From the NCBI GenBank assembly GCA_964434535.1, contig CAYSWA010000007.1, positions 8,321 through 72,320 on the forward strand: DNA of 64,000 bases, read 5' to 3'. How positions within the stretch are numbered: position 1 is the stretch's first letter; each line of letters starts with the position of its first letter. The stretch is from an uncultured candidatus Brocadiaceae bacterium (lineage in GTDB: Bacteria > Planctomycetota > Brocadiia > SM23-32). The notes below the pieces were generated by a model, which saw only the letters and a program-made list of their open reading frames with translations, did no database searches and was not told where the DNA came from. The position numbers were made by a program, and so were the translations under genes. Positions 13,678 through 61,015 of this stretch are shown piece by piece.

Positions 13678-15288
<1,611 letters not shown>

Positions 15289-19154: not shown

Positions 19155-19159
19155 CCTTC

Positions 19160-24894: not shown

Positions 24895-24923
24895 CTTGCA
24901 TTGCCCGTCGCTTTGCCCAATAA
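24895..24923 (+). promoter_or_regulatory. putative promoter TTGCAT-N17-AATAAT for GH42 gene
   Basis: Hexamer match in the 230-nt divergent region between the MoxR gene and the beta-galactosidase gene. Confidence 0.3.
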
Positions 24924-24999
24924 TGCCCCGGAGCTTGCCCTGCCTCCAGCCGGCGCGTTCCGGCCAGGGGCATGGAGCGCACCCCACACGGAGATGCAG

Positions 25000-26976: not shown

Positions 26977-27010
26977 CGTGTCCCCACTGCTCGAACCTTG
27001 CCGTGCAGCC

Positions 27011-29906: not shown

Positions 29907-30041
29907 TGAGCGGCCTCCCTGCTCGCCACGCCGCATTCTACCGAGCGGGCGAGGCCCAACACAAGGCGGCCCTCCCGCTCCGTGGCGCGACGGGCTCCGC
30001 AGGGCTTAGAATGGTCCGGATCGGCACTTCGAGGATCCCCC

Positions 30042-32762
30042 ATGCCCGACGCACAAGCCGGCCCGCCATCGACCGGGCGCTCCGACGAGGAGCTGTGGGA
30101 GCGGTTCGTCGGCGGCGACGCCGCCGCGCTCGCCGAGCTGAGAGCCCGCCACACGGGCCCGCTCTACCGCTACCTGCTGCTGAGCACCGGCCGCCCCGAC
30201 GAGGCCGGCCGGCACGTGGTCGGCACGTGGAGCCTGCTGGCCTGCTACCGGGAGCGCTTCCAGGGCTTCGCCTCGTTCCGCGCCTGGCTCTACGCCGTGG
30301 CCACCCAGAGGTGGATGCCGCCGACGCACCCCGAGCAGTTCGGCCTGACCGACCTGATGGACGATCTGCGCCGCGGCCGGCCGAGCTCGCGCGAGGGACG
30401 CATCTTCTTCCGCGTCAACGACATGCATCGCTCCGTGCGGCAGCCGTTCCTGCTGGAGGCGCTGGCGGGCCTCGGGCCCGACGAGATCGCCGCCGCCTGC
30501 CGCTTCACGCCCGAGCGCGTCCGCAAGGCTCTCGCGACGGCCTACCGGCGCCTCGCCCGCAGCGGGCTCTTCGGCCCGGGCGAGGGGGCGGACGCGGAGT
30601 CGCGCGCGGCCATCGCCGAGCAGGTCCGGCAGGCCGCCGACGTCTCGCTGCCGGAAGAGATGGCGGAGCTCGTCGAGCGCGGGGTGGCGGAGGCGACTGA
30701 GAGCGGGGAGGTGCTCCGCACTGCCCCGGCCGATTGGAGGCCCGAGCGTTCGGGCCGGCAGCGGGCGGCCCTCGTGGTGGCGTCCATCGTCCTGTTCGTG
30801 GTCGGGTCGGCCGGGCTTCTCGCTCTGCTGGGAGGCCGGGGGGAGCCCGTGCCGCCGGTCGCCGAAGCGGCCTCTCTATCAGGCCGCGCCGAGGTGCGGC
30901 CCCCGGGCGTCAGCGTGTGGCGCGAGATGGGCCGGCGGGAGTCCCTGCCGCCCGGCGCGCAGGTGCGCACCGGGCCGCAGGCCTACCTGGTGCTGCGGGG
31001 GGAGGGGGTCGAGTGGTGGCTGCCGCCCGTCACGGTCGTGGCGCTGCCCGAGCCCCGGACGGCTGAGCTGCTGGCAGGGAGGCTGTATGCGCGCGTGGAA
31101 ACCGGCGAAGCCCCGGGACGCGTGACCTCCGAGAACGGAAGCGTGGCCTGCCCGGAGGGGGAGTTCGTCGCCCGGGTGACCTCCCGGCGCTTCATCGCCG
31201 GCTGCGTGGGCGGAGACGCGGCTGTCGAGGCGGGCGAGGCGAGCGCGCAGCTCGGCCCCGGGGAGCTGACCATGGCCACCCGGGGCGAGCATGTCGGGCC
31301 GGTGCGGCCCGTCCGCCCCGCGCAGCTCACGCACTGGCTGGGTGAGTTCGCGCGCTACGAGGGGCGCCACATCGAGCCGCGGCAGCTCGCCGGCGTGCCC
31401 CTCGCGCCCGCGGCGCCCGCGCTGCCGCGCGGCGTGCGCATGGAGCGGCTCGCGCTGGAGCTCACCGTGCGCGGCCCCCTTGCGCTCGTCGAAGTGCGGG
31501 CGGCGCTGAGCAACGAAGGCGATGCGCAGTGGCAGGGGACGCTGGACCTCGGCGCGGCCGTCCTTCCCCCGCCCCTGGCGATCACCTCGGACGGGCCGCT
31601 TCGGCTGGCGCCCGGCGAGGGGGGCGAGGCCCGGCTGGCCGGGCTCTGCCTCATGCGCGACCGGCGCGGGCACTACGCCCTCGGCATCGACCCGGGCGCC
31701 TGGAGCGGCGGGACAATCGGCCGTCTGGACGTGCAGGTGAGCTCTGACGCGCAGGGCGGCATCGGCCGCTTCGCCTGCCCCACGCTCGGGGCGCGCTTGA
31801 GGCCGCGGGGGGCGCTGGACTGGACGGCGCGGCGCCGGGATTTCGCTGCGGAGACGCCGCTCGTCTTCGAGTTCGAGTTCGGCAAACCCGAGGGCATCGC
31901 GTGCCTGACGGGCTCCACCGACGGCGCGCGGGCGGCCCTGGTCGCCTGGCGGCCTCCCGCCGTGAAGCAGGAGTGGATCGCGAAGGAGCGCAACGTCTTC
32001 ATCGCTTTCGACGCCACGGCCGACTTCGGCCCGGGCGGCCGTTTCGCTGCCCAGGAGGCGCTGGAGGGCCTGATCCAGGCGCTGCCGCCGGGCTGCTCGA
32101 CGGCCTTGCTCGCCTACGACGGCCGGCTGCGGCTTGACCCCGACCGCCTGGCGCTGCACCATCCCGACCGGGTGGAGTCGATGCTCTCCGGGCTCTGGCA
32201 GCTCCAGGTGGAGGGCGCGGAGGAGGAGGCCGCGCCCGGCGCCTTCCTGGCGGCCGCCGTCGAGCTGGCCGTGGGGGCCGAAGGGGAGGGGTTGCTCGTG
32301 TTCGTCACCGGGCGCGAGGCGCCCGTGGAGCTGCCGGAGGCCAGGCCGGACGGCGGCCTGCGCGTCTGCGTCATCCAGGTCGGCGCGGAGGCGCCCGCCG
32401 CGGCGTATGCGGCCCTGTGTGCGGGCACGGGCGGCGTGGCGCTGGCCGTGCCGCCGACGGCGGCGCCGGACCTGGCCGTGATCGACTTCCTGGTGAACCT
32501 GGACGTGGCGGCGCTGCGCGAGGTCGCGCTCGATGCGCCGGGCGCCGGCGCGGCGGCCGTGCTGCGGGGGGAGGCGCGCTTCAGCAGCCAGCCGGTTGTC
32601 GGGCTGCTCGCCCTGCCGGGGGCGGGGGGTTCGGTGGCCGGCCGCTTTCGGGCGCGCGCCGGGGGACGCGCATTGGAGCGGCACTTCGCCCTCGAAGCGA
32701 CGCCGGTCGACTCCCTGCCGCCCGCGCTCGTCCGGGTGCTGGGGCAGCGCCACCTGCGGTGA
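30042..32762 (+). CDS. fusion protein: ECF sigma-70 factor + transmembrane FecR-like anti-sigma domain + C-terminal vWA-like domain
   Basis: Sigma region 2 (LYRYLLLSTGRPDEAGRHVVGTWSLLACYRERFQGFASFRAWLYAVA) and region 4 HTH (PDEIAAACRFTPERVRKALATAYRRL). One TM helix (LVVASIVLFVVGSAGLLALL). FecR-like block (SVWREMGRRESLPPGAQVRTGPQAYLVLRGEGVEWW). vWA-like VFIAFDATADFGPGG near the C-terminus. A TAGAAT -10 lies at 30007-30012. Confidence 0.7.
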   Translation: MPDAQAGPPSTGRSDEELWERFVGGDAAALAELRARHTGPLYRYLLLSTGRPDEAGRHVVGTWSLLACYRERFQGFASFRAWLYAVATQRWMPPTHPEQFGLTDLMDDLRRGRPSSREGRIFFRVNDMHRSVRQPFLLEALAGLGPDEIAAACRFTPERVRKALATAYRRLARSGLFGPGEGADAESRAAIAEQVRQAADVSLPEEMAELVERGVAEATESGEVLRTAPADWRPERSGRQRAALVVASIVLFVVGSAGLLALLGGRGEPVPPVAEAASLSGRAEVRPPGVSVWREMGRRESLPPGAQVRTGPQAYLVLRGEGVEWWLPPVTVVALPEPRTAELLAGRLYARVETGEAPGRVTSENGSVACPEGEFVARVTSRRFIAGCVGGDAAVEAGEASAQLGPGELTMATRGEHVGPVRPVRPAQLTHWLGEFARYEGRHIEPRQLAGVPLAPAAPALPRGVRMERLALELTVRGPLALVEVRAALSNEGDAQWQGTLDLGAAVLPPPLAITSDGPLRLAPGEGGEARLAGLCLMRDRRGHYALGIDPGAWSGGTIGRLDVQVSSDAQGGIGRFACPTLGARLRPRGALDWTARRRDFAAETPLVFEFEFGKPEGIACLTGSTDGARAALVAWRPPAVKQEWIAKERNVFIAFDATADFGPGGRFAAQEALEGLIQALPPGCSTALLAYDGRLRLDPDRLALHHPDRVESMLSGLWQLQVEGAEEEAAPGAFLAAAVELAVGAEGEGLLVFVTGREAPVELPEARPDGGLRVCVIQVGAEAPAAAYAALCAGTGGVALAVPPTAAPDLAVIDFLVNLDVAALREVALDAPGAGAAAVLRGEARFSSQPVVGLLALPGAGGSVAGRFRARAGGRALERHFALEATPVDSLPPALVRVLGQRHLR

Positions 32763-39052: not shown

Positions 39053-40993
39053 TCAGGAGCCCTTCGACCGCGGCAAATCGCGGTCGGCCAGAGTGAAGAA
39101 GAACGCGCTGCCCCCGTCCGAGCCGCTCTCCACCCAGACCTCGCCGCCGTGCAACTCCACGAACTGCCGGGCGATCGGCAGGTTCAGCCCGATCCGGTCC
39201 TCGGGCGACCAGGGCAGGGGGGTGTAGGTCAGCGGCGGGTCGAAGACCGTCTCGGCCGCCTCGGGCTGGATGCCGGGCCCCTGGTCGCGCACGCCGATGA
39301 CGGTCGCGTCTTCCGACCGACCCACCGAGACGGTCACCGTGGTGCCCTGTCCGCCGTACTTGATCGCGTTCGACAGCAGCGCGTAAAGGACCTGCTTGAC
39401 CTTGGGGCCGTCGGCGACAACGCGGGTCTCGTCGGCCTCGGGCGGTATCCGCACGTCGGCCTCGTAGCGCTTCCTGATCGGTTCCAGAACCCGCAGGGCC
39501 GACCGCAGGCACTCGCCCAGGTTGAGCCGCTCCGGCTCCAGGCGCATGCGTCCGGCCTCGACCGTGCAGAGGTCGCGCAGGTCCTCCACGTAAGCGCTGA
39601 TCTCCGCGCAGGCCGAGGTGATCGCCTCCCGGCTCGCCTGTTCCTCGCCCGCGCTGCTGATGCGGTCGCCGAGGGCATCGATGCGGTCGCGCATGCCCTC
39701 GGCGATGCTCTGCATCTGGGCGGAGAAGGCGTCGCGCACCCGCTGGCGCTGCATGTCGCTCTGGCGCGTCTCGTCGGTGTGGCGCCGGATCTCGCGGCGC
39801 TGGTCCTGCTCGTGGCGCTGGAGGGCGGCCGCCATGCGGTTGAACTGATGGCCCACCTGCTCCAGCTCGTCGCCCTGGCCGACCTGCACCCGCACGTCGA
39901 GCCGCCCGGCGGCCACCTGCTGCGCCGCCCAGTGCAGCGCCCAGATCGGCTCGACCAGGTTCCGCTTCCAGTAGACGGCCAGCAGGAGCAGGCCGGCCAT
40001 CGGCAGCGCCAGCACCAGCGCGCTCCACCCGAGAACGCGGCGCGACGGCGCGTAGACATCGGCGGCCGGCTGTGTCACCACCACGAACCAGGGCCAGCCC
40101 TCCACGTGCGCCGGCCGTCCGCTCTGGCGCACCACGGCGAAGCCGACCACCTGGGGCTGCTCATTGCCCGTCGTGACCTGCCCGACGAACACACCGTCCG
40201 GCGCGCTGCGGATGGCCCGCATGGCCTCGGCGTTCAGGTCCATCAGCCCCGGCGCGTCCGCCGCTTTGAAGACAGTGCGCCCCTGGGAGTCGACCAGGTG
40301 TCCCTGGCCGCCGGCACCGATCTCCAGCGCCCTGACGGCCTGGAAGAGCGCGTCCACCTCGTGGGAGACTTTCAGGACGCCCAGCGCGCGGCCGGCCTCG
40401 TCCCGCACCGCCGTGACCACGTCCAGGGAGAAGACCTCCGCGCTCTTGTCGTAGGCGATCGGGCCGACGTAGGTCGCGCCGGCGCCCTCGTCATAGGCGC
40501 GCTGCCACCATGCCTCGTCGGCCTGGTAGTAGTCTGTGGTCACGTTCGTGGCGGCCACCAGGGCTCCGGCGGCGTCGGTCAGCATGATCTCGGCGTAGCG
40601 CGTCGGCGCGCTCTGCTGGAAGCGGCGCAGCTGGGCGGCGGTTTCATTGTTCAGCAGCGGCTCGGCCAGGGCCGCCCGGGCGGCCTCGTCGGCGTTGATC
40701 CAGGCGCGGTCGCGCTCCAGCAGGGCTTCGAGCCGCTCCCCGGCTGCCTGGTCACTGCCGGCCACGCGTTCGATCAATGGGCGTGAGCGGGCCAGTTGCT
40801 CCACCTGCTCGACGGTGCGCTGGAGCAGCAGCCCGACCTGCGCAGACTTGCCCGCGGCCGCCTGGCGCACGCGCTCGCGGCCGGCCTCCATAAGCTGCGA
40901 GCGATGGACGCCGAACAGGATGCCCGCCATCAACAGCAGCGGAAGGAAGGCCAGCACCACGAAGGTCAGGATGAGTTTGCTCAGGAGCTTCAT
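39053..40993 (-). CDS. sensor histidine kinase with periplasmic Cache-like sensor and HAMP domain
   Basis: ATG 40993 with GGGAGGGG upstream. Signal/TM MKLLSKLILTFVVLAFLPLLLMAGILF, a periplasmic domain of about 270 aa, a second TM, HAMP (LDVRVQVGQGDELEQVGHQFNRMAAALQ), phosphoacceptor His, and HATPase (NAIKYG...GPGI...GLNL). No adjacent response regulator. Confidence 0.85.
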   Translation of the reverse strand: MKLLSKLILTFVVLAFLPLLLMAGILFGVHRSQLMEAGRERVRQAAAGKSAQVGLLLQRTVEQVEQLARSRPLIERVAGSDQAAGERLEALLERDRAWINADEAARAALAEPLLNNETAAQLRRFQQSAPTRYAEIMLTDAAGALVAATNVTTDYYQADEAWWQRAYDEGAGATYVGPIAYDKSAEVFSLDVVTAVRDEAGRALGVLKVSHEVDALFQAVRALEIGAGGQGHLVDSQGRTVFKAADAPGLMDLNAEAMRAIRSAPDGVFVGQVTTGNEQPQVVGFAVVRQSGRPAHVEGWPWFVVVTQPAADVYAPSRRVLGWSALVLALPMAGLLLLAVYWKRNLVEPIWALHWAAQQVAAGRLDVRVQVGQGDELEQVGHQFNRMAAALQRHEQDQRREIRRHTDETRQSDMQRQRVRDAFSAQMQSIAEGMRDRIDALGDRISSAGEEQASREAITSACAEISAYVEDLRDLCTVEAGRMRLEPERLNLGECLRSALRVLEPIRKRYEADVRIPPEADETRVVADGPKVKQVLYALLSNAIKYGGQGTTVTVSVGRSEDATVIGVRDQGPGIQPEAAETVFDPPLTYTPLPWSPEDRIGLNLPIARQFVELHGGEVWVESGSDGGSAFFFTLADRDLPRSKGS

Positions 40994-41186
40994 CGGGACG
41001 CCCCTCCCCAATCCGGGAGCCCGCCGGCCCGAGCGCCGAGCCGCCGCGCGCTCATTATACAGCGGTCCGGCGGCAACTCCATCAGTTTTCTGCCGAGCGC
41101 CGGTGGCCCGGACCGAAAAAGGGTGGTAGCATCATCGCATGGAGGTCACGTGCCAACACTGGCCCTTGCCCGGAAGGAGGAGGCAG

Positions 41187-41573
41187 ATGCCGCAGCGTGT
41201 GCTACTTGCGGGCCGCCGCCCGCTTGCCCTGGCGCTGGTCGCATTGCTCTGTGCGGGATGCATCTACGTGAGCAAAAGCGATGTCACCACGAAGGGCGCC
41301 CCGCTCGAGAGCGGCTTCGTTGGGGCGATCAGGGACGGCGAGACGACCAGGGCCGAGGTAATCGCCGCCCTCGGCGAACCCCCGGAGGTCCACAAGCTGC
41401 CGGACGGCGGCGAGCGGCTGGTCTATCAGTCGATGACGCGCGAGGAGACGGAGAAGCGGGTCCTGTTCCTCATGCATTCCGAGGAGCAGCAGACGAGCAC
41501 CCGGCGGCTATACCTGACGGTCAACGAGCAGGGCGTGGTCACCGCCCACCGCGTGGAGGAGTTGCCGCGCTGA
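41187..41573 (+). CDS. small lipoprotein
   Basis: ATG 41187 preceded by GGAAGGAGGAGG. Lipobox LLCAGC. 128 aa. Confidence 0.55.
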   Translation: MPQRVLLAGRRPLALALVALLCAGCIYVSKSDVTTKGAPLESGFVGAIRDGETTRAEVIAALGEPPEVHKLPDGGERLVYQSMTREETEKRVLFLMHSEEQQTSTRRLYLTVNEQGVVTAHRVEELPR

Positions 41574-41623: not shown

Positions 41624-43213
41624 TCAGCCCTCCAGGACCGCCTGCGCCTGGTCCAGGCCGGCCTCCATGACGTAGGGGATGCCGGAGATCTCGGCCGCCT
41701 GGCGGGTCAGGGCGATCAGGTCGGCGCGGCCGATCGTGGAGACGCTGAAGTTGCGGCTGCCGGCCATGATCTGCTGGAGGCCGATGCTGAGCTTCTGCAC
41801 GAAGGTGTAGACGCCGATCGCCCCGAGGGGCATCTGCTGGACCTCGTCGCCGTACTTGTCCTTCAGCTCATCGTAGCAGTAGAAGATCTCCTCCACTGTG
41901 TCGCCGTGTTCGCTGACCGTGTTGGGCAGGTTGCCCTCGCGCAGCCATAGGCCGATGTTCTTGCCGACGAAGCCGGGGATCATCAGCGCGCGGCCCATGC
42001 AGACGGCCTTGGTCCACGGGGCGCCCATGGCGAGCGCCTTGAAGATGTGGTCCTCCTGGGAGAGCCCGCCGGCGATGGCGATGTCGGGCGGCTCGATGCC
42101 GCGCTCGGCGAGCGCCCGGCAGAACTGGCAGACGAGCGACTGGAGGTAGAAGGTGGGCACGCCCCACTCGTTCATCATGCGCCAGGGGCTCATGCCCGTG
42201 CCGCCCGGGGCGCCGTCGATCGTCAGCAGCGAGATGCCCGCCTCCGCCGACCAGCGCAGCGCCATGGCCAGCTCACGCGCGCCGTAGGCCCCGGTCTTGA
42301 GGCTGACGCGCCTGGCGCCCAGATCGCGCAGGCGCTGCACCTCGGCCATGAAGCCTTCCTTGTCGACGAAGCCGAGCCGGCTGTGGCGCTCGAAGGCCGT
42401 GATCTCGCCGTCCTGGAAGGCCTCCTCCACGTGCGGCAGGCTCGGGTCGGGCGTGACCAGGTAGCCGCGGCTCTGGAGATGGCGGGCGCGCTCGATGGTG
42501 TCGACCTTGATCTCGCCGCCGATGCACTTGGCCCCCTGGCCCCACTTCAGTTCGATGGTCTCGACGCCGAGCTCGCGCACGCAGTAATCGGCCACGCCCA
42601 GGCGCGTATCCTCGACGTTGAGCTGGACGACCAGGTCGCCGTAGCCCTCGTGGAACCTGCGCCACTGGCTGACGCGGCGGTCCATCTCCGGGCTCTTGGC
42701 GACCTTCCCGTCGGCGTCCAGCTCGAGCTCGGGGTCGACGCCGCAGACGTTCTCGCCGCAGACCAGCGTGATGCCGGCCAGGGCGGCGCCGACGGCGAAG
42801 CTGTCCCAGTTCTTCGCGGCGACGTCGGTCGAGCCGAGGGCGCCGGTGAAGACGGGAACGCGCAACTTCACCTTGCTCTGCCTGCCGTACTCGACCTCGG
42901 TCGAGACGTTCGGGAAGATGCAATCGTCGGGGGTGGCCTGCAGGTCGCCCGTCAGCCCCTCGGCGCCGAGGGCGTAGCCCTGGATGTTCACGTGCGAGTA
43001 GTCGACCGGGTAGTCCTTCTCGGCGCCGGCCGTGATCTCGCCGAAGGGCGAGGGATAGAGCAGTTCGCGCCCGCGGAAGGACGCCTGAAAGATCTCACAG
43101 TTCCCGCGGCATCCGTCCACGCAGCGGGCGCAGATGCCGCTGCTGGGCGTGATGTCCCGGCTGCGGTTGCGGCACTGGAGCGCCTCCGAACCGTTCGGTC
43201 TCATCAACGTCAT
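41624..43213 (-). CDS. FMN-binding glutamate synthase family protein (stand-alone GltB-domain-2-like) with N-terminal Cys cluster
   Basis: GAPGGTGMSPW and IAIAGGL motifs of the GltS FMN domain. N-terminal CARCVDGCRGNC (C-x2-C-x3-C-x3-C). ATG 43213 with a GGAGG SD. Confidence 0.8.
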   Translation of the reverse strand: MTLMRPNGSEALQCRNRSRDITPSSGICARCVDGCRGNCEIFQASFRGRELLYPSPFGEITAGAEKDYPVDYSHVNIQGYALGAEGLTGDLQATPDDCIFPNVSTEVEYGRQSKVKLRVPVFTGALGSTDVAAKNWDSFAVGAALAGITLVCGENVCGVDPELELDADGKVAKSPEMDRRVSQWRRFHEGYGDLVVQLNVEDTRLGVADYCVRELGVETIELKWGQGAKCIGGEIKVDTIERARHLQSRGYLVTPDPSLPHVEEAFQDGEITAFERHSRLGFVDKEGFMAEVQRLRDLGARRVSLKTGAYGARELAMALRWSAEAGISLLTIDGAPGGTGMSPWRMMNEWGVPTFYLQSLVCQFCRALAERGIEPPDIAIAGGLSQEDHIFKALAMGAPWTKAVCMGRALMIPGFVGKNIGLWLREGNLPNTVSEHGDTVEEIFYCYDELKDKYGDEVQQMPLGAIGVYTFVQKLSIGLQQIMAGSRNFSVSTIGRADLIALTRQAAEISGIPYVMEAGLDQAQAVLEG

Positions 43214-43460
43214 GGCCTCTGCTGCCTCCTGTCCTGAGGAAAGCGAATGCGATCCGGCTCTTCGGATCTGTCCACGGAATGCACAACACGTTCGGCTTGA
43301 CACGCGCCGGGGGTACTTACGCAAGGCGGATACCGCTCGGCCGTTCGTGGGTCGAAAACGGGGCAGGAGGCCCCTCGGGGCCGTCATCGTCGGGGCGGAG
43401 GCGTCGGGGGCATGGGCAGGGGCTGAGCGGTGCGCAAGACGTGCACATGCCCCGGCCGGC

Positions 43461-45797
43461 TCAGCCGCCGAGGCCGTAGGAGGCGATGCGGGCCCGCAGC
43501 GTGTTGCGGCTGATCCCGAGCTCGCGGGCCGTGCGGGTCTGCACGCCGCCGTTGGCCGCCAGCACGTGGGCGATGAGCGTCCGCTCGACCAGGCCGATCA
43601 CCTCGTCGTAGAGCTCGCCGTCGCTGCCGCGTCGCAGCTCGGCGATCAGGGGCAGCAGCGCCTCCCTGAGGTCGCGGGCCGGTTCGGGGCGAGGGCGCCG
43701 CCGGGGCGCGCAGATCGACTCGGGCAGCAGCTCGACCGTGATCGTGGCGGTCCGGGTCAGCACGATGGCCCGCTCGATGCAGTTCTCCAGCTCGCGGACG
43801 TTGCCGGGCCAGTCGTAGGCCGTCAGCATGTCCAGGGCCTCGCGGGAGAGCTTGTCGACCTGCTTGTCGTCTTCGCGGCTGAAGACGCCCATGAAGTGCT
43901 CGACCAGCAGGGGGATGTCCTCTCGCCGCTCGCGCAGCGGGGGCAGGCGGATGGGCAGGACGTTGAGCCGGTAGTAGAGGTCCTGGCGGAACCCGCCGGC
44001 GTTGACCCGGTCGGCCAGGTCCACATTCGTGGCCGCCACCACGCGGACGTCGACCCGGACGGCCTGCGAAGCGCCGACGCGCTCGAATTCCTTCTCCTGG
44101 AGCACCCGCAGGAGCTTGACCTGGAGCTGCGGGCTCATGCTGCTGACCTCGTCCAGGAAGACGGTGCCCCCGTCGGCGAGGGCGAACCGGCCGGCGCGAT
44201 CGCGCGTGGCGCCGGTGAAGGCGCCCTCGACGTGGCCGAACAGCTCGGACTCCAGCAGCGAGTCGGGCAGGGCGCCGCAGTTGACGGCCACGAACGGGCC
44301 GTCGGCCCGGGGGCTGTTGGCGTGGATGACGCGGGCGATCAGCTCCTTGCCCGTGCCCGTCTCGCCCTGGATCAGCACGGTGGCGTTGCTGTCGGCGACG
44401 GCCTCGGTCAGGGCGAGCACCTCCTGCATGGGCTGCGAAGCGCCGATGATGCTGCCCTGGTCGTAACGCGACTCGGCGTGCGCCTTTGCGCCGGCGCCCC
44501 GCAGCAGCTCCTCTTTCTCGATGGCGACCATGCGGTTGATCTTGATCGCCTGCGAGATCATGGAGCCGACGATCTGCAGCAGGCGCTGGTCCTTCTCGAG
44601 CGTCTCGGCGTCGACGAACTCGCGGTCCGCGCTCAAGGCGCCGATCACCTGCTCCTCCAGGCGCAGCGGGATGCAGACGAAGGAGACGGGGGCGGCGCGC
44701 ATGTCCCGCCGGCGGGCGCCGGTGCGGTCCAGGAAGCGCGGGTCGCGCCGGATGTCGGGCACGGCCACCGCCGTCCCGCTCTCGACCACTGCGCCGGTGA
44801 CGCCCTCGCCGGGCTGGTAGACGCCCCGCGACATCTCCTCGCGGCTCAGCCCGTGGGCGGCGGCGATGCGCAGCGTGCCGCTGGCCCGGTCCTCCAGCAC
44901 CAGCGTGCCGCGTTTCATCTTCAGCCCGCGCGCCAGCACGGACATGATGGTTTCGAAGACGACGTCCAGGTCGAGGCTGCTGCCCAGGGCGCGGCTGATC
45001 TCCCTGAGCAGGCGCACCTCGAGCTCCTCGCGTCGCCGGGGCACCGGCTCGGGCCGGCCGTCGACCGACTCGAAGTAGTGCGGCGCCCCGATGCGGCAGG
45101 CGGGCCGGTCCTCCGCCTTGCGCACGATCAGCTCGATGCCGCCGCTGCCGACGCCGAGCTCCAGGACGACCTGGGTGACGTGCAGCAGCTTGGCCAGGAA
45201 GCTCGGAGAATGCGCGTGCTTCTCGGTGATCCAGTAGGCGACGGTCGACAGGTCGTAGAGCTTCGGGCAGAGGTGGCTGAAGAACTTCAGCACCTGCTCC
45301 TCGCCGCCCCACAGCTCCAGCATGGCGGTGGGGCTGTCGAAGACGTAGCGCCCGCGCGCGCCGGCGCGCTCGGCGAGCTCGCTCATGATCCCGCGCAGCC
45401 GGTCCGCGTCCGCCGGCTGCGGCACGCGGGTCACCGTCAGCCCGTCCGGGCCCGCCTCCCGGTAGAAGTCGGTGAAGAAGGCGTCGTCCTTGCCGAAGCC
45501 CGAGGTGAACGCATCGACCAGGTGGAAGCGCGGCAGCAACTCGTCGGTGACGTAGCGGTTGAGGATCGACTGGGGCGAGTGGCTGAAGCTGACGAAGAAG
45601 ATGCGGCTCTCGTCGCGGGCGGCCGTGGAAAGGAAGCTGCGGATGAAGAACTCCACCGGGGCGCCCGAATCGACCTGCCAGACCAGGTTGTCCCCGGCGC
45701 ACAGGCCGCTCAGTATGCGGTCCAGATACTCGACGCCGCTGCTGATGTGGTGAGCTTCCATCGGTGCTTGGTTCCCCTGAGTGGTTACGAAGTGCAC
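43461..45797 (-). CDS. sigma-54-dependent transcriptional activator, NifA-like (degenerate KaiC-like domain + GAF + AAA+ + Fis HTH)
   Basis: AAA+ block [15 protein letters not shown]...[15 protein letters not shown] (GAFTGA motif). GAF block ([12 protein letters not shown]). C-terminal HTH ([17 protein letters not shown]). The N-terminal roughly 250 aa resemble a KaiC/RecA-like fold lacking the P-loop. The start could be GTG 45797 or ATG 45763. Confidence 0.85.
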
Positions 45798-45966: not shown

Positions 45967-46035
45967 TGCGGGTGGAGTGGGCGAGTGACGGGGGGCCGGC
46001 CATTGAAGGCCTACTGCGGGAGGTGTGAGTCCACG

Positions 46036-47466
46036 GTGTCGCGCGCGCAGGGGTGCCTCGTCCCTTACGAGGGACCGCGCGAGGAGTGCGGGATCATCGG
46101 CCTCTACGGGGTCGAGCACGCCGCGCGGCAGGCGCACCTCGGCCTGTATGCGCTCCAGCACCGGGGGCAGGAGTCGGCGGGCATCGTCGCCTCCGACGGC
46201 GAGGGCATCCAGAGCGCGAAGGGCCTCGGCCTGCTGGCCGAAGCGATCGAGGCGTCGGCGCTGGCCGACCTGCCGGGGCACATCGCCATCGGCCACGTGC
46301 GCTACTCCACCACGGGCGCCAGGCGGGTGCAGAACATCCAGCCGCTGGTCATCGAGTACGCCGGCGGCATCGTGGCCGTGGCCCACAACGGGAACCTGAC
46401 CAACGCCCGCGCCCTGCGGCGGCGCTATGAGCAGAAGGGCTCGATCTTCCAGACCTCGACCGACAGCGAGGTCTTCGTCCACCTTCTCGCTGACCCCGAG
46501 CACCTCGGCGCCCCGGACCCGCTCAAGGAGGTGCTCCGGCACGTGCGCGGCGCCTACTCGCTGGTGCTTCTGACGGCCACCCAGCTCATCGCCGCCCGCG
46601 ACCCCCATGGGTTCCGCCCGCTCTGCCTGGGGCGGCTCGACGGCGGCTACGTCGTCGCCAGCGAGACCTGCGCGCTCGACCTGCTCGGGGCCCGCTTCGA
46701 GCGCGAGGTGCAGCCGGGCGAGGTCATCTTCGTCGACGAGGGCGGCCTGCGCGTCGAGACGTTCGCCGAGCCCCGGCGCGGCGCCCGGTGCGTCTTCGAA
46801 TACATCTACTTTGCCCGGCCGGACAGCGTCATCTTCGGCGAGACGGTCCACAACGTCCGCGTGCGCCTGGGGGAGAACCTGGCCAAGGGGGCGCCGGCGG
46901 ACGGGGACATCGTGGTCTCGGTGCCGGACTCGGGCAACTCGGCCGCGCTCGGCTACTCCCGCCGCTCGGGCATCCCGCTCGACATCGGCTTCGTGCGCAA
47001 CCACTACATCGGACGCACCTTCATCACCCCGGCCGAGGAGGCCCGCGCCAGCAGCGTGCGCATCAAGCTCAACGTCGTGCGCGACGTGGTGCGCGGCAAG
47101 CGCCTGGTGGTGGTGGACGACTCGATCGTGCGCGGCACCACATCCCGCGCGCGCATGGCGACGCTGCGGGAGGCCGGCGCCCGCGAGGTGCACCTGCGCG
47201 TCAGCGCGCCGCCGATCCGGCGCCCTTGCTTCTACGGCATCGACTTTCAGCACCCCGACGAGCTGATCGCCCGCGACCACAGCGTCGAGGAGATCGCCCG
47301 CTTCATCGGCGTCGACACCCTCGGCTACCAGAGCATCGAGGGGCTGATCGACGCCGTGCCGGGCGGCCCGGAGGACTACTGCTGCGCCTGCTTCACCGGC
47401 GAGTACCCGGTCGAGCTGACCGAGGCGATGGCCAAGGACGACCTGGAGCCCGGCCGCCGCCGCTGA
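46036..47466 (+). CDS. purF: amidophosphoribosyltransferase
   Basis: Catalytic CGIIGLYG N-terminal nucleophile after a short propeptide, PRTase motif VVVDDSIVRGTT, and C-terminal Cys cluster (CFYGID...CCACFTGEYP). The GTG start at 46036 is inferred and could lie elsewhere. Confidence 0.85.
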   Translation: MSRAQGCLVPYEGPREECGIIGLYGVEHAARQAHLGLYALQHRGQESAGIVASDGEGIQSAKGLGLLAEAIEASALADLPGHIAIGHVRYSTTGARRVQNIQPLVIEYAGGIVAVAHNGNLTNARALRRRYEQKGSIFQTSTDSEVFVHLLADPEHLGAPDPLKEVLRHVRGAYSLVLLTATQLIAARDPHGFRPLCLGRLDGGYVVASETCALDLLGARFEREVQPGEVIFVDEGGLRVETFAEPRRGARCVFEYIYFARPDSVIFGETVHNVRVRLGENLAKGAPADGDIVVSVPDSGNSAALGYSRRSGIPLDIGFVRNHYIGRTFITPAEEARASSVRIKLNVVRDVVRGKRLVVVDDSIVRGTTSRARMATLREAGAREVHLRVSAPPIRRPCFYGIDFQHPDELIARDHSVEEIARFIGVDTLGYQSIEGLIDAVPGGPEDYCCACFTGEYPVELTEAMAKDDLEPGRRR

Positions 47467-47580: not shown

Positions 47581-49134
<1,554 letters not shown>

Positions 49135-49224: not shown

Positions 49225-49239
49225 TGGCAAACCGTTTGC
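49225..49239 (+). promoter_or_regulatory. sigma-54 (-24/-12) promoter TGGCAA-N5-TTGCG upstream of porin-amt-glnK
   Basis: CTGGCAAACCGTTTGCG has GG and GC separated by 10 nt. It lies about 110 nt upstream of the porin start. Confidence 0.5.
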
Positions 49240-52186: not shown

Positions 52187-52201
52187 TGGCACGGCCGTTG
52201 C
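52187..52201 (+). promoter_or_regulatory. sigma-54 promoter TGGCACG-GCCG-TTGCT for glnA
   Basis: Near-perfect match to TGGCACG-N4-TTGCW. The GG and GC are 10 nt apart. About 78 nt upstream of the glnA ATG. Confidence 0.65.
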
Positions 52202-53696: not shown

Positions 53697-56600
53697 ATGG
53701 GTGGCGAACGGGAACAGACGGACGACCCTCGCCAGGACGGCGATCCCGACCAGCGCCGGGGGGCGATGGACCGCGCGGGACGGCCGCGTGGCGGGGGGCT
53801 CTACGATCCGCGCTTCGAGCACGATGCCTGCGGGGTCGGCTTCCTGGCCCGACTCGACGGCGAGGCGCACCATCACGTCGTCGCCGACGCCGTGGAGGTG
53901 CTGGCCAACCTCGGGCACCGTGGCGCCGTCGGCGGCGACCAGGCCACGGGCGACGGCGCGGGCCTGCTGGTTCAGATGCCGGATGCGTTCATGCGCCGGG
54001 TCGCCGGCGAGTGCAGCGTCGATCTGCCCGGGCCGGGCCAGTACGCCGCCGGCATGGTCTTCCTGCCCGACGAGCCGGCCGCCGCCGAGCGCTGCATGAG
54101 CGCGCTGGAACGGGCGAGCCAGGCCGAGGGCTGCCTCCTGCTCGGCTGGCGCAAGGTGCCGACCTCGGGCGAGCACCTGGGCGAGCTTGCCCGCAGCACC
54201 CGGCCCGACATCCGCCAGGTCTTCGTCGCGCCCGGCCGCGTGCCGCCGGGCGGGTTCGAGCGCAAGCTCTACGTCCTGCGCCGGCGGGTCGAGAACGAAG
54301 TGGCCGGCTGGCGCGACGAGGCCACCGCGCAGTTCTACGTCGCCAGCCTCTCCAGCCGCACCGTCCTCTACAAAGGGATGCTCAGCGGCACGCAACTCGT
54401 GCGCTTCTACCCGGAGCTGGACGAGCGGGACTTCGCCTGCGCCTTCGTCGTCGTCCACCAGCGCTACAGCACGAATACCTTCCCCACCTGGCAGCTCGCA
54501 CAGCCCTTCCGCATGCTCGCGCACAACGGCGAGATCAACACCCTGCGCGGGAACGTGAGCCACATGCGCGCCCGCGAGGCCGAACTGGCCAGCGAGCTGT
54601 TCGGCGACGACATCGAGAAGGTCAAGCCCGTCATCGTGGAGGGCGGCAGCGACTCGGCGATGCTCGACAACGCGCTGGAGCTGCTGACCATGGCCGGCCG
54701 CTCGCTGCCGCACGCGGCCATGATGCTGGTGCCCGAGGCATGGGGCGGCAAGTTCCACATGAGCGAGGACCGGCGCGCCTTCTACGAATACCACGCCGCC
54801 ATCATGGAGCCGTGGGACGGCCCGGCGGCGCTGGTCTTCACCGACGGGCGCTACATCGGCGCCACGCTCGACCGCAACGGGCTGCGCCCCTGCCGCTTCA
54901 CCGTCACCGGCGACGGCTACGTCGTGCTCGCCTCCGAGACCGGCGTGCTCGACATCCCGCCGAGCCGCATCATCCGCCACGGCCGGCTCCAGCCGGGCAA
55001 GATGCTGCTGGTGGACATGGAGGAGAACCGGATCGTCTCCGACAACGAGATCAAGGCCCGCATGGGCCGCCAGCGGCCCTACCGGCGCTGGGTGCGGGAC
55101 AACCGCATCGAGCTGCGCGGCCTGTTCGCCCCGTCGGAGATCCCGCCCGAGGACCCCGAGGAGCTGCTGCGCAAGCAGCACGCGTTCGGCTACACCCGTG
55201 AGGAGCTCTCCATGGTCATCGGCCCCATGGCCTCGCAGGGCCAGGAGGCCGTCGGCTCGATGGGCAACGACGCGGCCCTGGCCGTCTTCTGCGACCGGCC
55301 GCAGCTCCTGTTCGCCTACTTCAAGCAGCTCTTCGCCCAGGTGACCAACCCGCCGATCGATCCGCTGCGCGAGCAGCTCGTCATGTCGCTGATGAGCTTC
55401 GTCGGGCGCGAGCGGAACTTGCTGGACGAGACCCCCGAGCACTGCCGGCGGCTCAAGATCCCGCATCCCGTCCTCACGCCGGAGGACACGGTGAGGCTCC
55501 GGGGCGCCGACCACCCCGACCTGGTCACGCGCGACGTGGACATCCTGTTCGAGGCGGGCGGCGACGGCAAGGCGCTCAAGGTCGGCCTGGAGCGCGTCTT
55601 CGCGAAGGCCGAAAAGGCGATCGCCGACGGGGCCAGCATCCTGATCCTGACCGACCGCCACATGGACGAGGACCACGCGCCGATCCCGGCGCTGCTCGCG
55701 GTGGCCGGGCTCCACCATCACCTGATCCGCAGGGGCCTGCGCACGCGGGCGGGCATTGTGGTGGAGAGCGGCGAGCCGCGCGAGGTCATGCACTTCGCGC
55801 TGCTGGTCGGCTACGGGGCGAACGCCGTCTGCCCGTACGTGGCCTTCGCCACGGTGCGGCAACTGGCGGAGGAGGGGCTGCTCGCGCGGGAGACCAGCCC
55901 GGCGCGGGCGGCCGACGCCTACATCACCGCCGTCAAGAAGGGGCTGCTCAAGACGTTTAGCCGCATGGGCATCTCGACGATCCGCAGCTACTTCGGCGCG
56001 CAGATATTTGAAGCCGTCGGGCTCTCGCGCGGGCTGGTGGACGAGTACTTCTGCGGCACGGCCTCCCGCGTGGAGGGGATCGGCCTGGAGGAGATCGCCG
56101 GCGAGGCGGCCCGGCGCCACCGCGCCGGCTTCCCTGCGGGCCGGGCGCCGGCGGCGCTGCTGGAGGCCGGCGGCGCCTACCACGTCCGCGTCGGCGGCGA
56201 GAGCCACCTCTGGACGCCCGAGGCGCTCCACACGCTTCAGCAGGCCACGCGCACCGACGACTACGGCCTGTTCCGCCGCTACACGGCGCTGATCGACGCG
56301 CAGTCCGAGCGGCGCGTCACGCTGCGGAGCCTGTTCCGGTTCCGCGAGACGGAGCCCGTGCCGCTGGAGGAGGTCGAGTCGGTCGAGTCGATCATGCGGC
56401 GGTTCTGCTCGGCGGCGATGTCCTTCGGCTCGATCAGCAAGGAGGCGCACGAGACGATCGCCACCGCCATGAACCGGCTCGGGGCGAAGAGCAACTCGGG
56501 CGAGGGCGGGGAGGACCGCGAGCGCTACCGCCCGCTGCCGAACGGGGATTCGCGCTGCTCGGCGATCAAGCAGGTCGCCTCGGGGCGGTTCGGCGTCACG

Positions 56601-58322
56601 ACCGAGTACCTGGTCAACGCCCGCGAGCTCCAGATCAAGATGGCCCAGGGGGCCAAGCCGGGCGAGGGCGGGCAACTGCCCGGCCACAAGGTCAGCAGGG
56701 ACATCGCCCGCGTGCGGCACACAACGGCCGGCGTGACGCTGATCTCGCCGCCGCCGCACCACGACATCTACTCCATCGAAGACCTGGCGCAGCTCATCTA
56801 CGACCTGAAGGCCGTCAACCGCGAGGCCCGCGTCTCGGTGAAGCTCGTCAGCGAGGTCGGCGTCGGCACCATCGCCGCCGGCGTGGCGAAGGGCAAGGCC
56901 GACATGGTGCTGATCGCCGGCCACGACGGCGGCACCGGCGCCAGCCCGCTGACCGCCATCCAGCACACCGGCCTGCCATGGGAGCTCGGCCTGGCCGAGA
57001 CGCAGCAGACGCTGGTGACCAACCGCCTGCGCGAGCGCATCCGCGTGCAGGTGGACGGCCAGCTCAAGACCGGGCGCGACCTGGCGGTGGCGGCGCTGCT
57101 CGGCGCCGAGGAGTTCGGCTTCGGCACAACCGTGCTGGTCACGCTCGGCTGCGTGATGATGCGCAAGTGCCACATGAACACCTGCCCGGTCGGCGTCGCC
57201 ACTCAGGACCCCGTGCTGCGGGCGCGCTTCGCCGGGAAGCCCGAGTACGTCGAGCGCTTCTTCCGCTTCATGGCGCAGGAGCTGCGCGAATGGATGGGCA
57301 AGCTCGGGTTTCGCACGCTCGACGATATGGTTGGCCGCGTCGAGATGCTCGACGTCGAGCCGGCCGTCGAGCACTACAAGGCCAGGGGGCTGGAGCTGGG
57401 CGCGCTGCTGGAGGCGCCGCAGGCGCCGGAAGGCACGTCCCTGCGCTGCACCGGCGGGCAGCAACCCACCGAGCTGGCCGAGCCCGAGCGTGAGCTGCTC
57501 CGAGTGGCGCGCCCGGCGTTGGAGGAGGGCCGCCCGGTGCGCGTCGAGCTGCCGATCCGCAACGTGCACCGCACCGTCTGTGCCACGCTGAGCGGCGAGG
57601 TGGCCCGGCGCTACGGGGCCGAAGGGCTGCCCGAGGGCACGGTCCGGGTCTGGCTGCAGGGTTCGGCCGGGCAGAGCCTGGCGGCGTTCCTGGCGCGGGG
57701 CGTGGAGGTGCGCCTGGAGGGCGAGGCGAACGACTACACGGCCAAGGGCATGTCCGGCGGGCGGCTGGTGGTGGTGCCGCCGCCGGACGCCGCCTTCCTG
57801 CCGCACGAGAACATCATCGTGGGCAACGTCGTGCTCTACGGGGCCACGGGGGGCGAGGCGTTCATCTGCGGCGTGGCGGGGGAGCGGTTCGCCGTGCGCA
57901 ACAGCGGCGCGACGGCCGTCGTCGAGGGCGTCGGCGACCACGCCTGCGAGTACATGACCGGCGGCGTGGTGGTCGTGCTCGGCTCGACCGGCTACAACTT
58001 CGCCGCCGGCATGAGCGGCGGCGTCGCCTACGTCTACGACGAGTCCGAGGCGTTCGGCACCCGCTGCAACCTGGACATGGTGGACCTGGAGAGCGTGCGC
58101 GGCGAGGAGGACCGCCGCCGGCTCCGGGCCCTCGTCGAGAAGCACCGGCGCCTGACCGGCAGCGCGCGGGCCGCCATGCTGCTGGAGAACTGGCAGGGTC
58201 AGCTTCCGCTCTTCGTCAAGGTGATGCCGCTCGAGTACCGCGAGGTCCTCCAGCGCATGCGCCTGGAGGAGCACCGCGACAGCGAGACCGTCTCGGCCAC
58301 CGAGGAGGTCTACCATGGGTAA
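53697..58322 (+). CDS. gltB: glutamate synthase large subunit
   Basis: N-terminal amidotransferase nucleophile in ...LYDPRFEHDACGVGF, FMN domain, 3Fe-4S Cys cluster, and C-terminal GXGXG beta-helix. 1541 aa. The start is ATG 53697 (GAGGA SD) or 53766. Confidence 0.9.
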   Translation: MGGEREQTDDPRQDGDPDQRRGAMDRAGRPRGGGLYDPRFEHDACGVGFLARLDGEAHHHVVADAVEVLANLGHRGAVGGDQATGDGAGLLVQMPDAFMRRVAGECSVDLPGPGQYAAGMVFLPDEPAAAERCMSALERASQAEGCLLLGWRKVPTSGEHLGELARSTRPDIRQVFVAPGRVPPGGFERKLYVLRRRVENEVAGWRDEATAQFYVASLSSRTVLYKGMLSGTQLVRFYPELDERDFACAFVVVHQRYSTNTFPTWQLAQPFRMLAHNGEINTLRGNVSHMRAREAELASELFGDDIEKVKPVIVEGGSDSAMLDNALELLTMAGRSLPHAAMMLVPEAWGGKFHMSEDRRAFYEYHAAIMEPWDGPAALVFTDGRYIGATLDRNGLRPCRFTVTGDGYVVLASETGVLDIPPSRIIRHGRLQPGKMLLVDMEENRIVSDNEIKARMGRQRPYRRWVRDNRIELRGLFAPSEIPPEDPEELLRKQHAFGYTREELSMVIGPMASQGQEAVGSMGNDAALAVFCDRPQLLFAYFKQLFAQVTNPPIDPLREQLVMSLMSFVGRERNLLDETPEHCRRLKIPHPVLTPEDTVRLRGADHPDLVTRDVDILFEAGGDGKALKVGLERVFAKAEKAIADGASILILTDRHMDEDHAPIPALLAVAGLHHHLIRRGLRTRAGIVVESGEPREVMHFALLVGYGANAVCPYVAFATVRQLAEEGLLARETSPARAADAYITAVKKGLLKTFSRMGISTIRSYFGAQIFEAVGLSRGLVDEYFCGTASRVEGIGLEEIAGEAARRHRAGFPAGRAPAALLEAGGAYHVRVGGESHLWTPEALHTLQQATRTDDYGLFRRYTALIDAQSERRVTLRSLFRFRETEPVPLEEVESVESIMRRFCSAAMSFGSISKEAHETIATAMNRLGAKSNSGEGGEDRERYRPLPNGDSRCSAIKQVASGRFGVTTEYLVNARELQIKMAQGAKPGEGGQLPGHKVSRDIARVRHTTAGVTLISPPPHHDIYSIEDLAQLIYDLKAVNREARVSVKLVSEVGVGTIAAGVAKGKADMVLIAGHDGGTGASPLTAIQHTGLPWELGLAETQQTLVTNRLRERIRVQVDGQLKTGRDLAVAALLGAEEFGFGTTVLVTLGCVMMRKCHMNTCPVGVATQDPVLRARFAGKPEYVERFFRFMAQELREWMGKLGFRTLDDMVGRVEMLDVEPAVEHYKARGLELGALLEAPQAPEGTSLRCTGGQQPTELAEPERELLRVARPALEEGRPVRVELPIRNVHRTVCATLSGEVARRYGAEGLPEGTVRVWLQGSAGQSLAAFLARGVEVRLEGEANDYTAKGMSGGRLVVVPPPDAAFLPHENIIVGNVVLYGATGGEAFICGVAGERFAVRNSGATAVVEGVGDHACEYMTGGVVVVLGSTGYNFAAGMSGGVAYVYDESEAFGTRCNLDMVDLESVRGEEDRRRLRALVEKHRRLTGSARAAMLLENWQGQLPLFVKVMPLEYREVLQRMRLEEHRDSETVSATEEVYHG

Positions 58323-59917: not shown

Positions 59918-61015
59918 ATGAAGGGCCTGATCGCACTGGAAGACGGGCGGACCTTCGCGGGCGAGTCCTTCGGCGCCGAGGGCAAGCGAGCCGGGGAGGC
60001 CGTCTTCAACACCAGCATGACCGGCTACCAGGAGGCCCTTACCGACCCGTCCTACCGGGGGCAGATCGTCACGATGACCTATCCCCTGATCGGCAACTAC
60101 GGCACGAACCGGCGGGACGTGGAGTCCGAGCGCCCCCAGGTCGAGGGATTCGTAGTCCGCCAGTACTGCCCCTACCCGTCGAACCACGAGGCCGAGTGGA
60201 CGCTCGCCGAGTACCTGGTCCGCCACGGGGTGGTCGCCCTGAGCGAGGTGGACACGCGGGCCTTCACCCGGCACATCCGCCGCGCGGGGGCGATGCGCGC
60301 CGTGATCGCCTCCGGCGATCATGACCCCGACGCGCTGGTGGAGGAGGCCCGCAGCAGCCCCGGCCTGATCGGGCGCGACCTGGTACGCGAGGTGACCTGC
60401 GATGCGCCCTACGTCTTCGCCGAGGGCGAGCCGGGGGCGCTGCACGTGGTGGTCTACGACTTCGGCGTGAAGCGGAACATCCTGCGCTGCCTGGCCGGCA
60501 TGGGCTTCCGCGTCACCGTCGTGCCGGCCGGCACGAGCGCCGAGGAGGCGCTCTCCCAAGGGCCGGACGGGGTACTGCTCTCCAACGGACCGGGCGACCC
60601 CGAGGGCGTGCCCTACGCCGTCGAGGCGACCCGCGGCCTGATCGGCCGGGTGCCGCTGTTCGGTATCTGCCTGGGGCACGAGTTCCTCGGGCTCGCCCTC
60701 GGCGGCGAGATGCGCAAGCTGAAGTTCGGACACCGCGGCGCCAACCACCCCGTCAAGGACCTGCGCACCGGCGAGATCGACATCACCTGCCAGAACCACA
60801 GCTTCAACATCGAGATGGACTCGCTCGACCCCGGCGAGGTCGAGATCACGCACGTGAACCTGAACGACATGACCGCCGCCGGGCTGCGCCACCGCCGGCT
60901 GCCCGTCGCCTCGGTGCAGTACCACCCCGAGGCAAGCGCCGGCCCCCACGACGCCCGCCACCTCTTCGACCGCTTCCGCGAGATGATGCTCGCCGAGCGG
61001 GGGGGAGAGGAATGA
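59918..61015 (+). CDS. carA: carbamoyl-phosphate synthase small (glutaminase) subunit
   Basis: MKGLIALEDGRTFAGESFGAEG...TGYQEALTDPSY. GATase GICLGHEF...QYHPEAS. Confidence 0.9.
   Translation: MKGLIALEDGRTFAGESFGAEGKRAGEAVFNTSMTGYQEALTDPSYRGQIVTMTYPLIGNYGTNRRDVESERPQVEGFVVRQYCPYPSNHEAEWTLAEYLVRHGVVALSEVDTRAFTRHIRRAGAMRAVIASGDHDPDALVEEARSSPGLIGRDLVREVTCDAPYVFAEGEPGALHVVVYDFGVKRNILRCLAGMGFRVTVVPAGTSAEEALSQGPDGVLLSNGPGDPEGVPYAVEATRGLIGRVPLFGICLGHEFLGLALGGEMRKLKFGHRGANHPVKDLRTGEIDITCQNHSFNIEMDSLDPGEVEITHVNLNDMTAAGLRHRRLPVASVQYHPEASAGPHDARHLFDRFREMMLAERGGEE

Follow-up and report, generated by a model that had tools for sequence, protein, structure and literature searches.

A 64,000-nucleotide stretch of a contig from an uncultured candidatus Brocadiaceae bacterium (phylum Planctomycetota; the whole stretch is referred to below as the window) carries a minus-strand gene for a sigma-54-dependent transcriptional activator whose N-terminal domain belongs to the KaiC family of ATPases and has lost its P-loop. 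We propose, with a probability of about 0.7, that this domain is a pseudo-ATPase sensor module that gates an activator of nitrogen assimilation. The regulator combines four modules: a KaiC-like pseudo-ATPase, a GAF domain, an AAA+ domain that contacts sigma-54 and has its catalytic motifs intact, and a Fis-type helix-turn-helix (HTH). For the AAA+/HTH core, the most likely role is to bind paired TG(T/C)GCAC elements and to switch on the sigma-54 promoter of the neighboring gene, which encodes a 529-amino acid (aa) protein with a Glu_synthase domain. The N-terminal module would act as the signal input; it belongs to a large branch of the KaiC family that lacks the P-loop and whose output modules are interchangeable. 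We infer that the module reports nitrogen or carbon status, either by binding a small ligand at the remodelled nucleotide site or by way of a partner protein, and that this signal gates the assembly or the activity of the AAA+ ring.

The open reading frame (ORF) at 43461..45797 on the minus strand encodes 778 aa from a GTG codon and contains both peptides quoted in a first-pass annotation of this DNA, which had been made by a model from the sequence. The frame that this annotation delimited is real: the whole ORF has a G+C content at third codon positions (GC3) of 0.96, a value typical of genuine genes in this ~71% GC window. Its start probably lies 36 nt downstream of the end given there. We set aside the GTG at 45797 as the start in favor of the ATG at 45761, most likely the true one (766 aa), because an identical 766-aa protein is present in a public collection (P0269), because the orthologue in another Planctomycetota locus (L001) has 764 aa from an ATG, and because homologues begin ~5 residues ahead of a conserved SSG motif. 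The features of the gene are as follows (residue numbers here and below refer to the 778-aa form unless stated otherwise).

43461..45761, minus strand: sigma-54 activator gene, an ORF of 766 aa; the upstream GTG at 45797 is probably unused
45042..45749, minus strand: P-loop-less KaiC-like N-terminal domain, residues 5-240 of the 766-aa form (17-252 of the 778-aa form)
45651..45680, minus strand: degenerate Walker A position, opposite (I/V)SGTSGTGKT of KaiC, with Val at the Lys equivalent and Glu at the Thr equivalent
45321..45350, minus strand: retained Walker-B-like strand with Asp154, Ser155 and Thr157, aligned to RVSIDSVTSV of KaiC-CI
44544..44972, minus strand: GAF domain (PF01590, E=8e-17), residues 276-418
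43950..44450, minus strand: sigma-54 AAA+ domain (Sigma54_activat, PF00158, E=2e-72), residues 450-616
44343..44366, minus strand: Walker A motif of the AAA+ domain, GETGTGKE
44208..44225, minus strand: GAFTGA motif of the AAA+ domain
44145..44162, minus strand: Walker B motif of the AAA+ domain, VFLDEV
43698..43934, minus strand: AAA+ lid (AAA_lid_14, PF25601, E=8.7e-29), residues 622-700
43476..43592, minus strand: Fis-type DNA-binding domain HTH_8 (PF02954, E=8.4e-12), residues 736-774

Because the Walker A, GAFTGA and Walker B motifs of the AAA+ domain are all intact, the core looks like that of a functional enhancer-binding protein (EBP). The protein has what defines a bacterial EBP, namely an AAA+ domain with GAFTGA and Walker A/B motifs, a C-terminal HTH, and a -24/-12 element at a neighboring gene.

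Searched alone against Pfam, NCBIfam and PDB sequences, residues 1-262 gave sub-threshold matches only (PAXNEB, E=0.12; KaiC PRK09302, E=0.11), so that a family profile was needed. A homologue search with the N-terminal region returned 120 proteins at 36-63% identity (mostly 37-48%). An alignment of 24 homologues, 32-43% identical to the query (alignment A1), contains 24 invariant columns, and its profile matched PDB sequences of KaiC (8zn7, E=7.9e-10), PH0284 (E=2.3e-7) and SSO2452 (E=5.9e-4). Individually, 15 of these 24 family members matched the KaiC family PF06745 (best E=5.3e-11) and 10 matched PAXNEB; nine gave weak matches to DUF7090 (best E=5e-4). An AlphaFold single-chain model of the domain, built on A1, was confident (pLDDT 91.3, pTM 0.88). 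When this model was compared with the PDB by Foldseek, the one search method from which the structural support derives, it retrieved KaiC, FlaH, PH0284 and SSO2452 with a probability of 1.00, E values from 6.5e-13 to 1e-10, and TM-scores up to 0.76. An hhalign comparison with the CI domain of KaiC aligned 212 columns that span the whole domain. The Walker A and Glu-Glu mapping that it gave was independently confirmed by the PDB alignments, and the mapping of K224 comes solely from this comparison.

By family profile and by predicted structure, these results confirm that the N-terminal ~240 residues, which form a single domain, adopt a KaiC/RecA-like fold. The first-pass annotation had recognized a KaiC/RecA-like layout in the region and suggested fold and structure searches; all of the top sequence and structure matches are to KaiC-family proteins, and no unrelated fold was assigned with confidence.

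The same annotation had noted that the Walker A motif GxxGxGKT is replaced, and the PDB alignments and hhalign both bear this out. Where KaiC has GTSGTGKT (K52, T53), the regulator has VDSGAPVE (V48, E49). The pair of catalytic glutamates is lost as well: E77 and E78 of KaiC correspond to S72 and H73 in the regulator and to N and R in the family, so that FSHSP (regulator) or FNRSP (family consensus) stands opposite FEE(S/T)P. None of the 316 family proteins that cover the Walker A region has a G-x4-G-K-[ST] P-loop motif, and 288 of them carry a GDNVVW motif. Among 273 sequences, the Walker A Lys position (48) is never Lys, and the Thr position is usually D or E. The domain does not belong to the active-ATPase class, because the Walker A motif and the catalytic Glu pair were both tested and are both absent.

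Other parts of the former active site have been kept. The Walker B Asp of KaiC (D145) corresponds to D154 and is D or E in 269 of 273 members; YVFDSPT of the regulator aligns here with RVSIDSVT of KaiC, although the local match is weak in the profile-PDB alignment. The Ser and Thr that follow (S146 and T148 in KaiC, S155 and T157 in the regulator) are conserved in 265 and 266 of 273 members, respectively. K227, the equivalent of the interface Lys K224 of KaiC-CI according to the hhalign comparison, is Lys in 268 of 273. In addition, a polar/aromatic core is near-invariant across all architectures (D95 and W189, 273/273 each; Q209, 272/273; C177, 269/273; R231, 268/273; H196, 264/273), as is a G-K-G loop ('CFTxGKG') after strand 3, whose K101 is present in 236 of 273 members. 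Judged by its residues, the N-terminal module is a pseudo-ATPase that has lost Walker A and the catalytic glutamates and retained the Walker B Asp and the interface Lys. The strong purifying selection on a polar core common to all architectures argues for a selected, functional module rather than a decaying one. The regulator's own clade is a divergent minority (4 of 104 sigma-54-type members), in which several otherwise near-invariant residues are replaced (E41Q, N72S, R73H, C96A, K101F, L156P and G158A).

An exhaustive profile search over 1.84 billion cluster representatives (clusters at 50% identity) placed this module in a family of 1,338 clusters at E<=1e-3, with 124 clusters at E<=1e-30. 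The family signature is STG[IV]xxLDxxLxGLRxGDNVVW, and the module is N-terminal in every protein examined. The outputs that follow it are listed below.

XRE-HTH plus cupin: ~426 aa, the majority of the family
GAF, sigma-54 AAA+ and HTH_8: ~770 aa, the architecture of the regulator
Sigma-54 AAA+ without GAF: ~600 aa
PAS/GAF histidine kinases: more distant members (P0201, P0226, P0222, P0202)
PPDK_N (ATP-grasp, the N-terminal domain of pyruvate-phosphate dikinase): ~860 aa, more distant members (P0205, P0225, P0250)
No output: stand-alone module

The GAF-less variants, in which the module directly precedes the sigma-54 AAA+ domain, occur in six loci (L061, L065, L082, L084, L089 and L092). One PPDK_N fusion (P0205) lies on a 4-kb contig, and its context is uninformative. 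In another locus (L013), the module and the AAA+ part were called as two overlapping genes; other genes on that contig are fragmented, and the split is probably a frameshift artefact.

The architecture of the regulator itself is shared by 114 of the 118 full-length matches listed (50-76% identity, >=96% coverage), which carry the module. They are labeled in their sources as "sigma 54-interacting transcriptional regulator" or "Nif-specific regulatory protein" (the latter from JGI), and those with named organisms come from Planctomycetota (Brocadiia, Sedimentisphaerales) and Kiritimatiellae. The first-pass annotation had called the architecture unusual and asked how the fusion is distributed: relative to characterized EBPs it is unusual, but it is shared by at least 114 cluster representatives.

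The genes around the regulator point to nitrogen assimilation. Immediately downstream, on the same strand and 248 bp away, lies the Glu_synthase-like gene, preceded by a candidate promoter and a candidate regulatory site:

41624..43213, minus strand: Glu_synthase-domain gene, 529 aa (PF01645, E=7.9e-15), with an N-terminal CxxCxxGCxxxC motif
43321..43334, minus strand: sigma-54 -24/-12 element GGTATccgccTTGC, ~108 nt ahead of the start codon of the Glu_synthase-like gene
43430..43447, minus strand: TGTGCACgtctTGCGCAC, a candidate upstream activator sequence that precedes the -24 element by ~100 bp

The 529-aa protein has no NCBIfam match and no PDB relative by sequence. On the other side of the regulator are purF, a second GAF-sigma-54 activator, a porin-like gene, amtB, glnK, glnA, gltB, gltD, carA and guaA. 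The placement of a KaiC-like domain on a GAF-AAA+-HTH activator within a nitrogen cluster, as first annotated, is thus upheld by the Pfam domains and by amtB, glnK, glnA and gltBD.

Linkage of the module to a Glu_synthase-like gene extends well beyond the window. The enzyme is 62% identical between the window, where it accompanies a sigma-54-type regulator, and a Nitrospirota locus (L011, 7510..9138), where it accompanies an XRE-type regulator. The regulator/enzyme pair is kept in two orthologous Planctomycetota loci (L001 and L004), and a Glu_synthase-like gene lies downstream of the regulator in these and in L025, L035, L048, L051 and L083. Adjacency was counted in 80 metagenome loci, the best of 565; many lie on short contigs, and those with >=800 bp of downstream sequence were used. 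A Glu_synthase-like gene of the window type stood immediately downstream in 13 of 20 XRE-cupin loci, 3 of 4 unclassified loci, and none of 6 loci with GAF-less sigma-54 regulators; for GAF-sigma-54 regulators, the strict count was 3 of 14 (L025, L035 and L048), and L051 and L083, which also carry such a gene downstream, fall outside it. The remaining sigma-54-type loci, including those without GAF, have a cluster a few kb downstream in the order FlpD, methylenetetrahydrofolate reductase-like gene, Glu_synthase, Fer4/Glu_synthase. A Kiritimatiellae member precedes glnA and a complete split glutamate synthase (GOGAT). In a 140-kb control, none of eight unrelated sigma-54-activator loci showed the regulator-Glu_synthase linkage.

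Two Nitrospirota loci with XRE-type regulators also encode a protein with NRD1_2 (PF01995; L011, 9236..10560; L018, 5170..5553), a domain with a regulatory role in NrpR, the nitrogen repressor of archaea. Both loci contain Glu_synthase genes and an archaeal-type GOGAT, and in L011 a P-II gene adjoins the NRD1_2 gene.

The promoter of the adjacent gene follows the output module of the regulator. Using the pattern GG[CT]AN-N5-NTGC, we found a -24/-12 element ahead of the adjacent gene in 8 of 8 sigma-54-type loci and in 2 of 17 XRE-type loci. Shuffling of the sigma-54-type intergenic regions (1,000 trials) gave a mean of 0.5 and a maximum of 3 of 8. This distribution is as expected if each regulator controls its adjacent gene. 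The conserved form in the eight sigma-54-type loci is GG-N10-TTGC. The element of the window, GGTATccgccTTGC, aligns with TGGCATtcgccTTGCT in L001 and with TGGCACccccTTTGCT in L004. In 6 of the 8 Glu_synthase-linked sigma-54-type loci, paired TG(T/C)GCAC-type elements stand in an equivalent position, a count made without a chance control for the motif, and TGTGCACgtctTGCGCAC is, by inference, a candidate activator-binding site. An exact sigma-54 consensus, TGGCACGGCCGTTGC, is located just upstream of glnA (52187..52201, plus strand), and an element with one mismatch lies upstream of the porin-like, amtB and glnK genes (49225..49239, plus strand). Over the whole window, sigma-54 elements of this kind are not above chance (5 found, 3.9 expected).

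Several other roles for the N-terminal region were weighed. The region might be a constitutive oligomerization scaffold, in which a KaiC-like hexameric ring pre-assembles the AAA+ ring and the GAF domain does the sensing. In favor of this, KaiC-family domains form hexamers, EBPs must hexamerize to act, and the interface Lys equivalent to K224 is kept in nearly all members. We nevertheless rank a sensor role, by ligand or by partner, above a pure scaffold and consider the latter improbable, because the same module also heads XRE-HTH/cupin regulators and histidine kinases, which are normally dimers, because it is the sole N-terminal module of the GAF-less sigma-54 variants, and because the invariant polar core kept at the former active site exceeds what a scaffold needs. 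Another possibility is a sensor of energy status that binds ATP or ADP in a non-canonical way without hydrolysis, the Lys of 'CFTxGKG' substituting for the Walker A Lys. The retained Walker B Asp, the Ser/Thr next to it, Q209, K227 and R231, and the near-invariant G-K-G loop all fit such a site, but the glycine-rich P-loop is absent, the acidic residue (D/E) at the Thr equivalent would repel phosphates, and K101 is Phe in the regulator's own clade, which makes this unlikely. The module could also be the place where a partner protein docks, for instance P-II (GlnK/GlnB) or, as feedback control, the Glu_synthase-like enzyme. KaiC itself acts through partner binding. So does ArlH (bioRxiv 10.1101/2021.03.19.436134). 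Within the window, glnK lies 6 kb from the regulator; P-II genes occur within 8 kb in 7 of the 80 family loci, an adjacent one is found in L011, and the regulator is tightly paired with a single enzyme that is highly conserved across phyla. Yet P-II genes are expected at any nitrogen locus and are absent from most of those sampled, and no link is known between P-II or the Glu_synthase-like enzyme and the fusions to histidine kinases and PPDK_N; we assign docking a low probability.

Two further explanations concern the identity of the protein and the reality of its N-terminus. The regulator could be a genuine NifA that controls nitrogenase genes and bears an accessory N-terminal extension. The GAF-AAA+-HTH architecture, the JGI label of its homologues and the top NCBIfam match, NifA (TIGR01817), speak for this reading. 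The first-pass annotation had called the protein NifA-like, which is right for the architecture only: the score of 495.8 bits falls below the cutoff of 528.85, so that the protein does not qualify as a NifA equivalog, and no nif gene was present among 26 ORFs of the window scanned against Pfam (~19 other GC3-supported ORFs, mostly at 800-20100, were left unscanned). The conserved neighbors in eight sigma-54-type loci are instead Glu_synthase-like genes with sigma-54 promoters. We rejected a true NifA on the score and on this conserved neighbor, and regard it as very unlikely. Least credible of all is a functionless N-terminal region, whether a decaying remnant or an artefact of assembly or gene calling. 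The catalytic motifs have been lost and single-sequence searches were empty, but the 24 invariant columns of A1, the confident structure model, and the high GC3 across the whole ORF speak otherwise. An assembly or frameshift chimera was rejected since 114 full-length homologues share the architecture, and a functionless remnant was rejected on the invariant polar core, the conservation data effectively refuting it.

Some observations weigh against a pseudo-ATPase sensor that gates a nitrogen-assimilation activator. Sensing could be the work of the GAF domain by itself, and the regulator's clade, given its replacements of near-invariant residues, may sense differently or less. Two of the sampled family loci (L014 and L017) lack a Glu_synthase neighbor; the adjacency figures come from the best-scoring loci, many of them on short contigs, and their control comprises eight loci only. 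The proposed activator site is a recurrent motif for which chance was not controlled, not a binding result. Beyond the sensor reading as stated, we tentatively consider a broader scheme, possible but with the odds against it. The GDNVVW module would be a widespread, hitherto unrecognized cytoplasmic sensor of nitrogen status that binds a metabolite, for example glutamine, glutamate or 2-oxoglutarate, or else P-II, at a remodelled inter-subunit nucleotide site and thereby drives ring assembly. It would provide bacteria of the Planctomycetes-Verrucomicrobia-Chlamydiae (PVC) group and Nitrospirota with a one-component alternative to NtrB/NtrC for genes of the glutamine synthetase (GS)/GOGAT type, and the ~530-aa Glu_synthase-like enzyme would be its dedicated target.

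The remainder of the window contains several features of separate interest. The second GAF-sigma-54-HTH activator (47581..49134, plus strand) lacks the pseudo-KaiC module and scores 563.2 against TIGR01817, whose cutoff is 528.85. It lies upstream of the porin-like, amtB, glnK and glnA genes, not of nif genes, and automated annotation would probably misname it NifA. Genes for glutamine amidotransferases are unusually concentrated around the amtB-glnK-glnA-gltBD core, as though enzymes that consume glutamine had been gathered there:

13678..15288, minus strand: pyrG
45985..47466, plus strand: purF
53700..58322, plus strand: gltB
59918..61015, plus strand: carA
61503..63059, plus strand: guaA

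A dCache-HAMP histidine kinase gene is found at 39053..41011 (minus strand), and between it and the Glu_synthase-like gene is a 144-aa ORF (41139..41573, plus strand; GC3 0.88) with no Pfam match. Farther away, a MoxR-type AAA_3 ATPase (23797..27051, minus strand), whose N-terminal extension of ~800 residues has no Pfam match, is encoded upstream of a TgpA-like transglutaminase (20115..22520, minus strand). A gene-like ORF of 926 aa (29982..32762, plus strand; GC3 0.93) likewise has no Pfam match.

The classification of EBPs follows the input domain at the N-terminus (REC, GAF, PAS, V4R and others), and the types described so far do not include a pseudo-ATPase derived from KaiC. Pseudo-ATPase signaling domains and sigma-54 activators are each already known; the module studied here, widespread and unannotated, appears to be a new variant of both and adds an example of an ATPase fold turned to signal input. 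Members of this populous family are currently annotated merely as "sigma-54 interacting regulator", "Nif-specific regulatory protein" or "XRE family regulator". The module consistently accompanies Glu_synthase-domain and GS/GOGAT genes, and does so with two output types that are unrelated; this pairing offers a testable handle on nitrogen sensing in Planctomycetota, Kiritimatiellae and Nitrospirota, and it flags the highly conserved ~530-aa enzyme as a probable regulated target. It also extends to bacteria the archaeal idea of KaiC-like proteins as signaling hubs.

Among known systems, KaiC (PF06745) is the best profile and structural match, and shares with the regulator the RecA-like fold, an N-terminal signature (SSG[IV]xxLDxxLGG) and the Walker B Asp. 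In place of the CI+CII tandem the regulator has one KaiC-like domain, which lacks GK[ST] and the Glu-Glu pair and is fused to a transcription activator. For this domain, the functions of an ATPase, an autokinase or a clock protein are excluded or unsupported. The first-pass annotation had drawn an analogy with clock proteins, for which we found no support: no KaiB or KaiA turned up in the window or the related loci examined, as far as their genes were called or scanned, no targeted KaiB search having been run. ArlH/FlaH (4yds), PH0284 (2dr3) and SSO2452 (2w0m) are single-domain proteins of similar size that act as regulatory or accessory subunits, and they gave the top target-normalized TM-scores (0.70-0.76). 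Unlike the regulator, they are archaeal and stand-alone, and their intact Walker A binds ATP (4yds was solved with ATP/Mg). The Elongator subunits Elp4/5/6 (PAXNEB, PF05625) also have a RecA/KaiC-like fold, and their P-loops are degenerate; they form a eukaryotic tRNA-modification scaffold without regulatory fusions, so that the similarity is one of shared superfamily only.

NifA/NtrC-class activators resemble the regulator in their GAF-AAA+(GAFTGA)-HTH_8 core, in the -24/-12 promoter at a neighboring gene, and in their nitrogen context. They differ in that the regulator falls below the NifA cutoff, has no REC domain, and bears the additional pseudo-KaiC module; orthologous loci do not keep the histidine kinase gene that lies nearest to it, and its predicted target is the Glu_synthase-like gene rather than nif or glnA-ntrBC. 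In the full-text literature, we found nothing that combines KaiC-like domains with sigma-54 activators, and nothing on this regulator-enzyme pair; nor did the searchable literature yield a described mechanism of nitrogen-status sensing for Planctomycetota, Kiritimatiellae or Nitrospirota. The nearest concept is the archaeal 'iKaiC', described as divergent, probably inactive KaiC-superfamily domains fused to REC, PAS and HalOD1 (Makarova, Galperin & Koonin 2017, cited in PMC5847659). The iKaiC proteins are archaeal and have other partner domains, and the account of them in PMC5847659, as far as it goes, reports no link to sigma-54, XRE-cupin or Glu_synthase. The weak DUF7090 matches of nine family members are at most a possible hint of direct homology to them. 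Compared by description only, they share with the regulator its central feature, an inactivated KaiC-superfamily domain joined to signaling modules.

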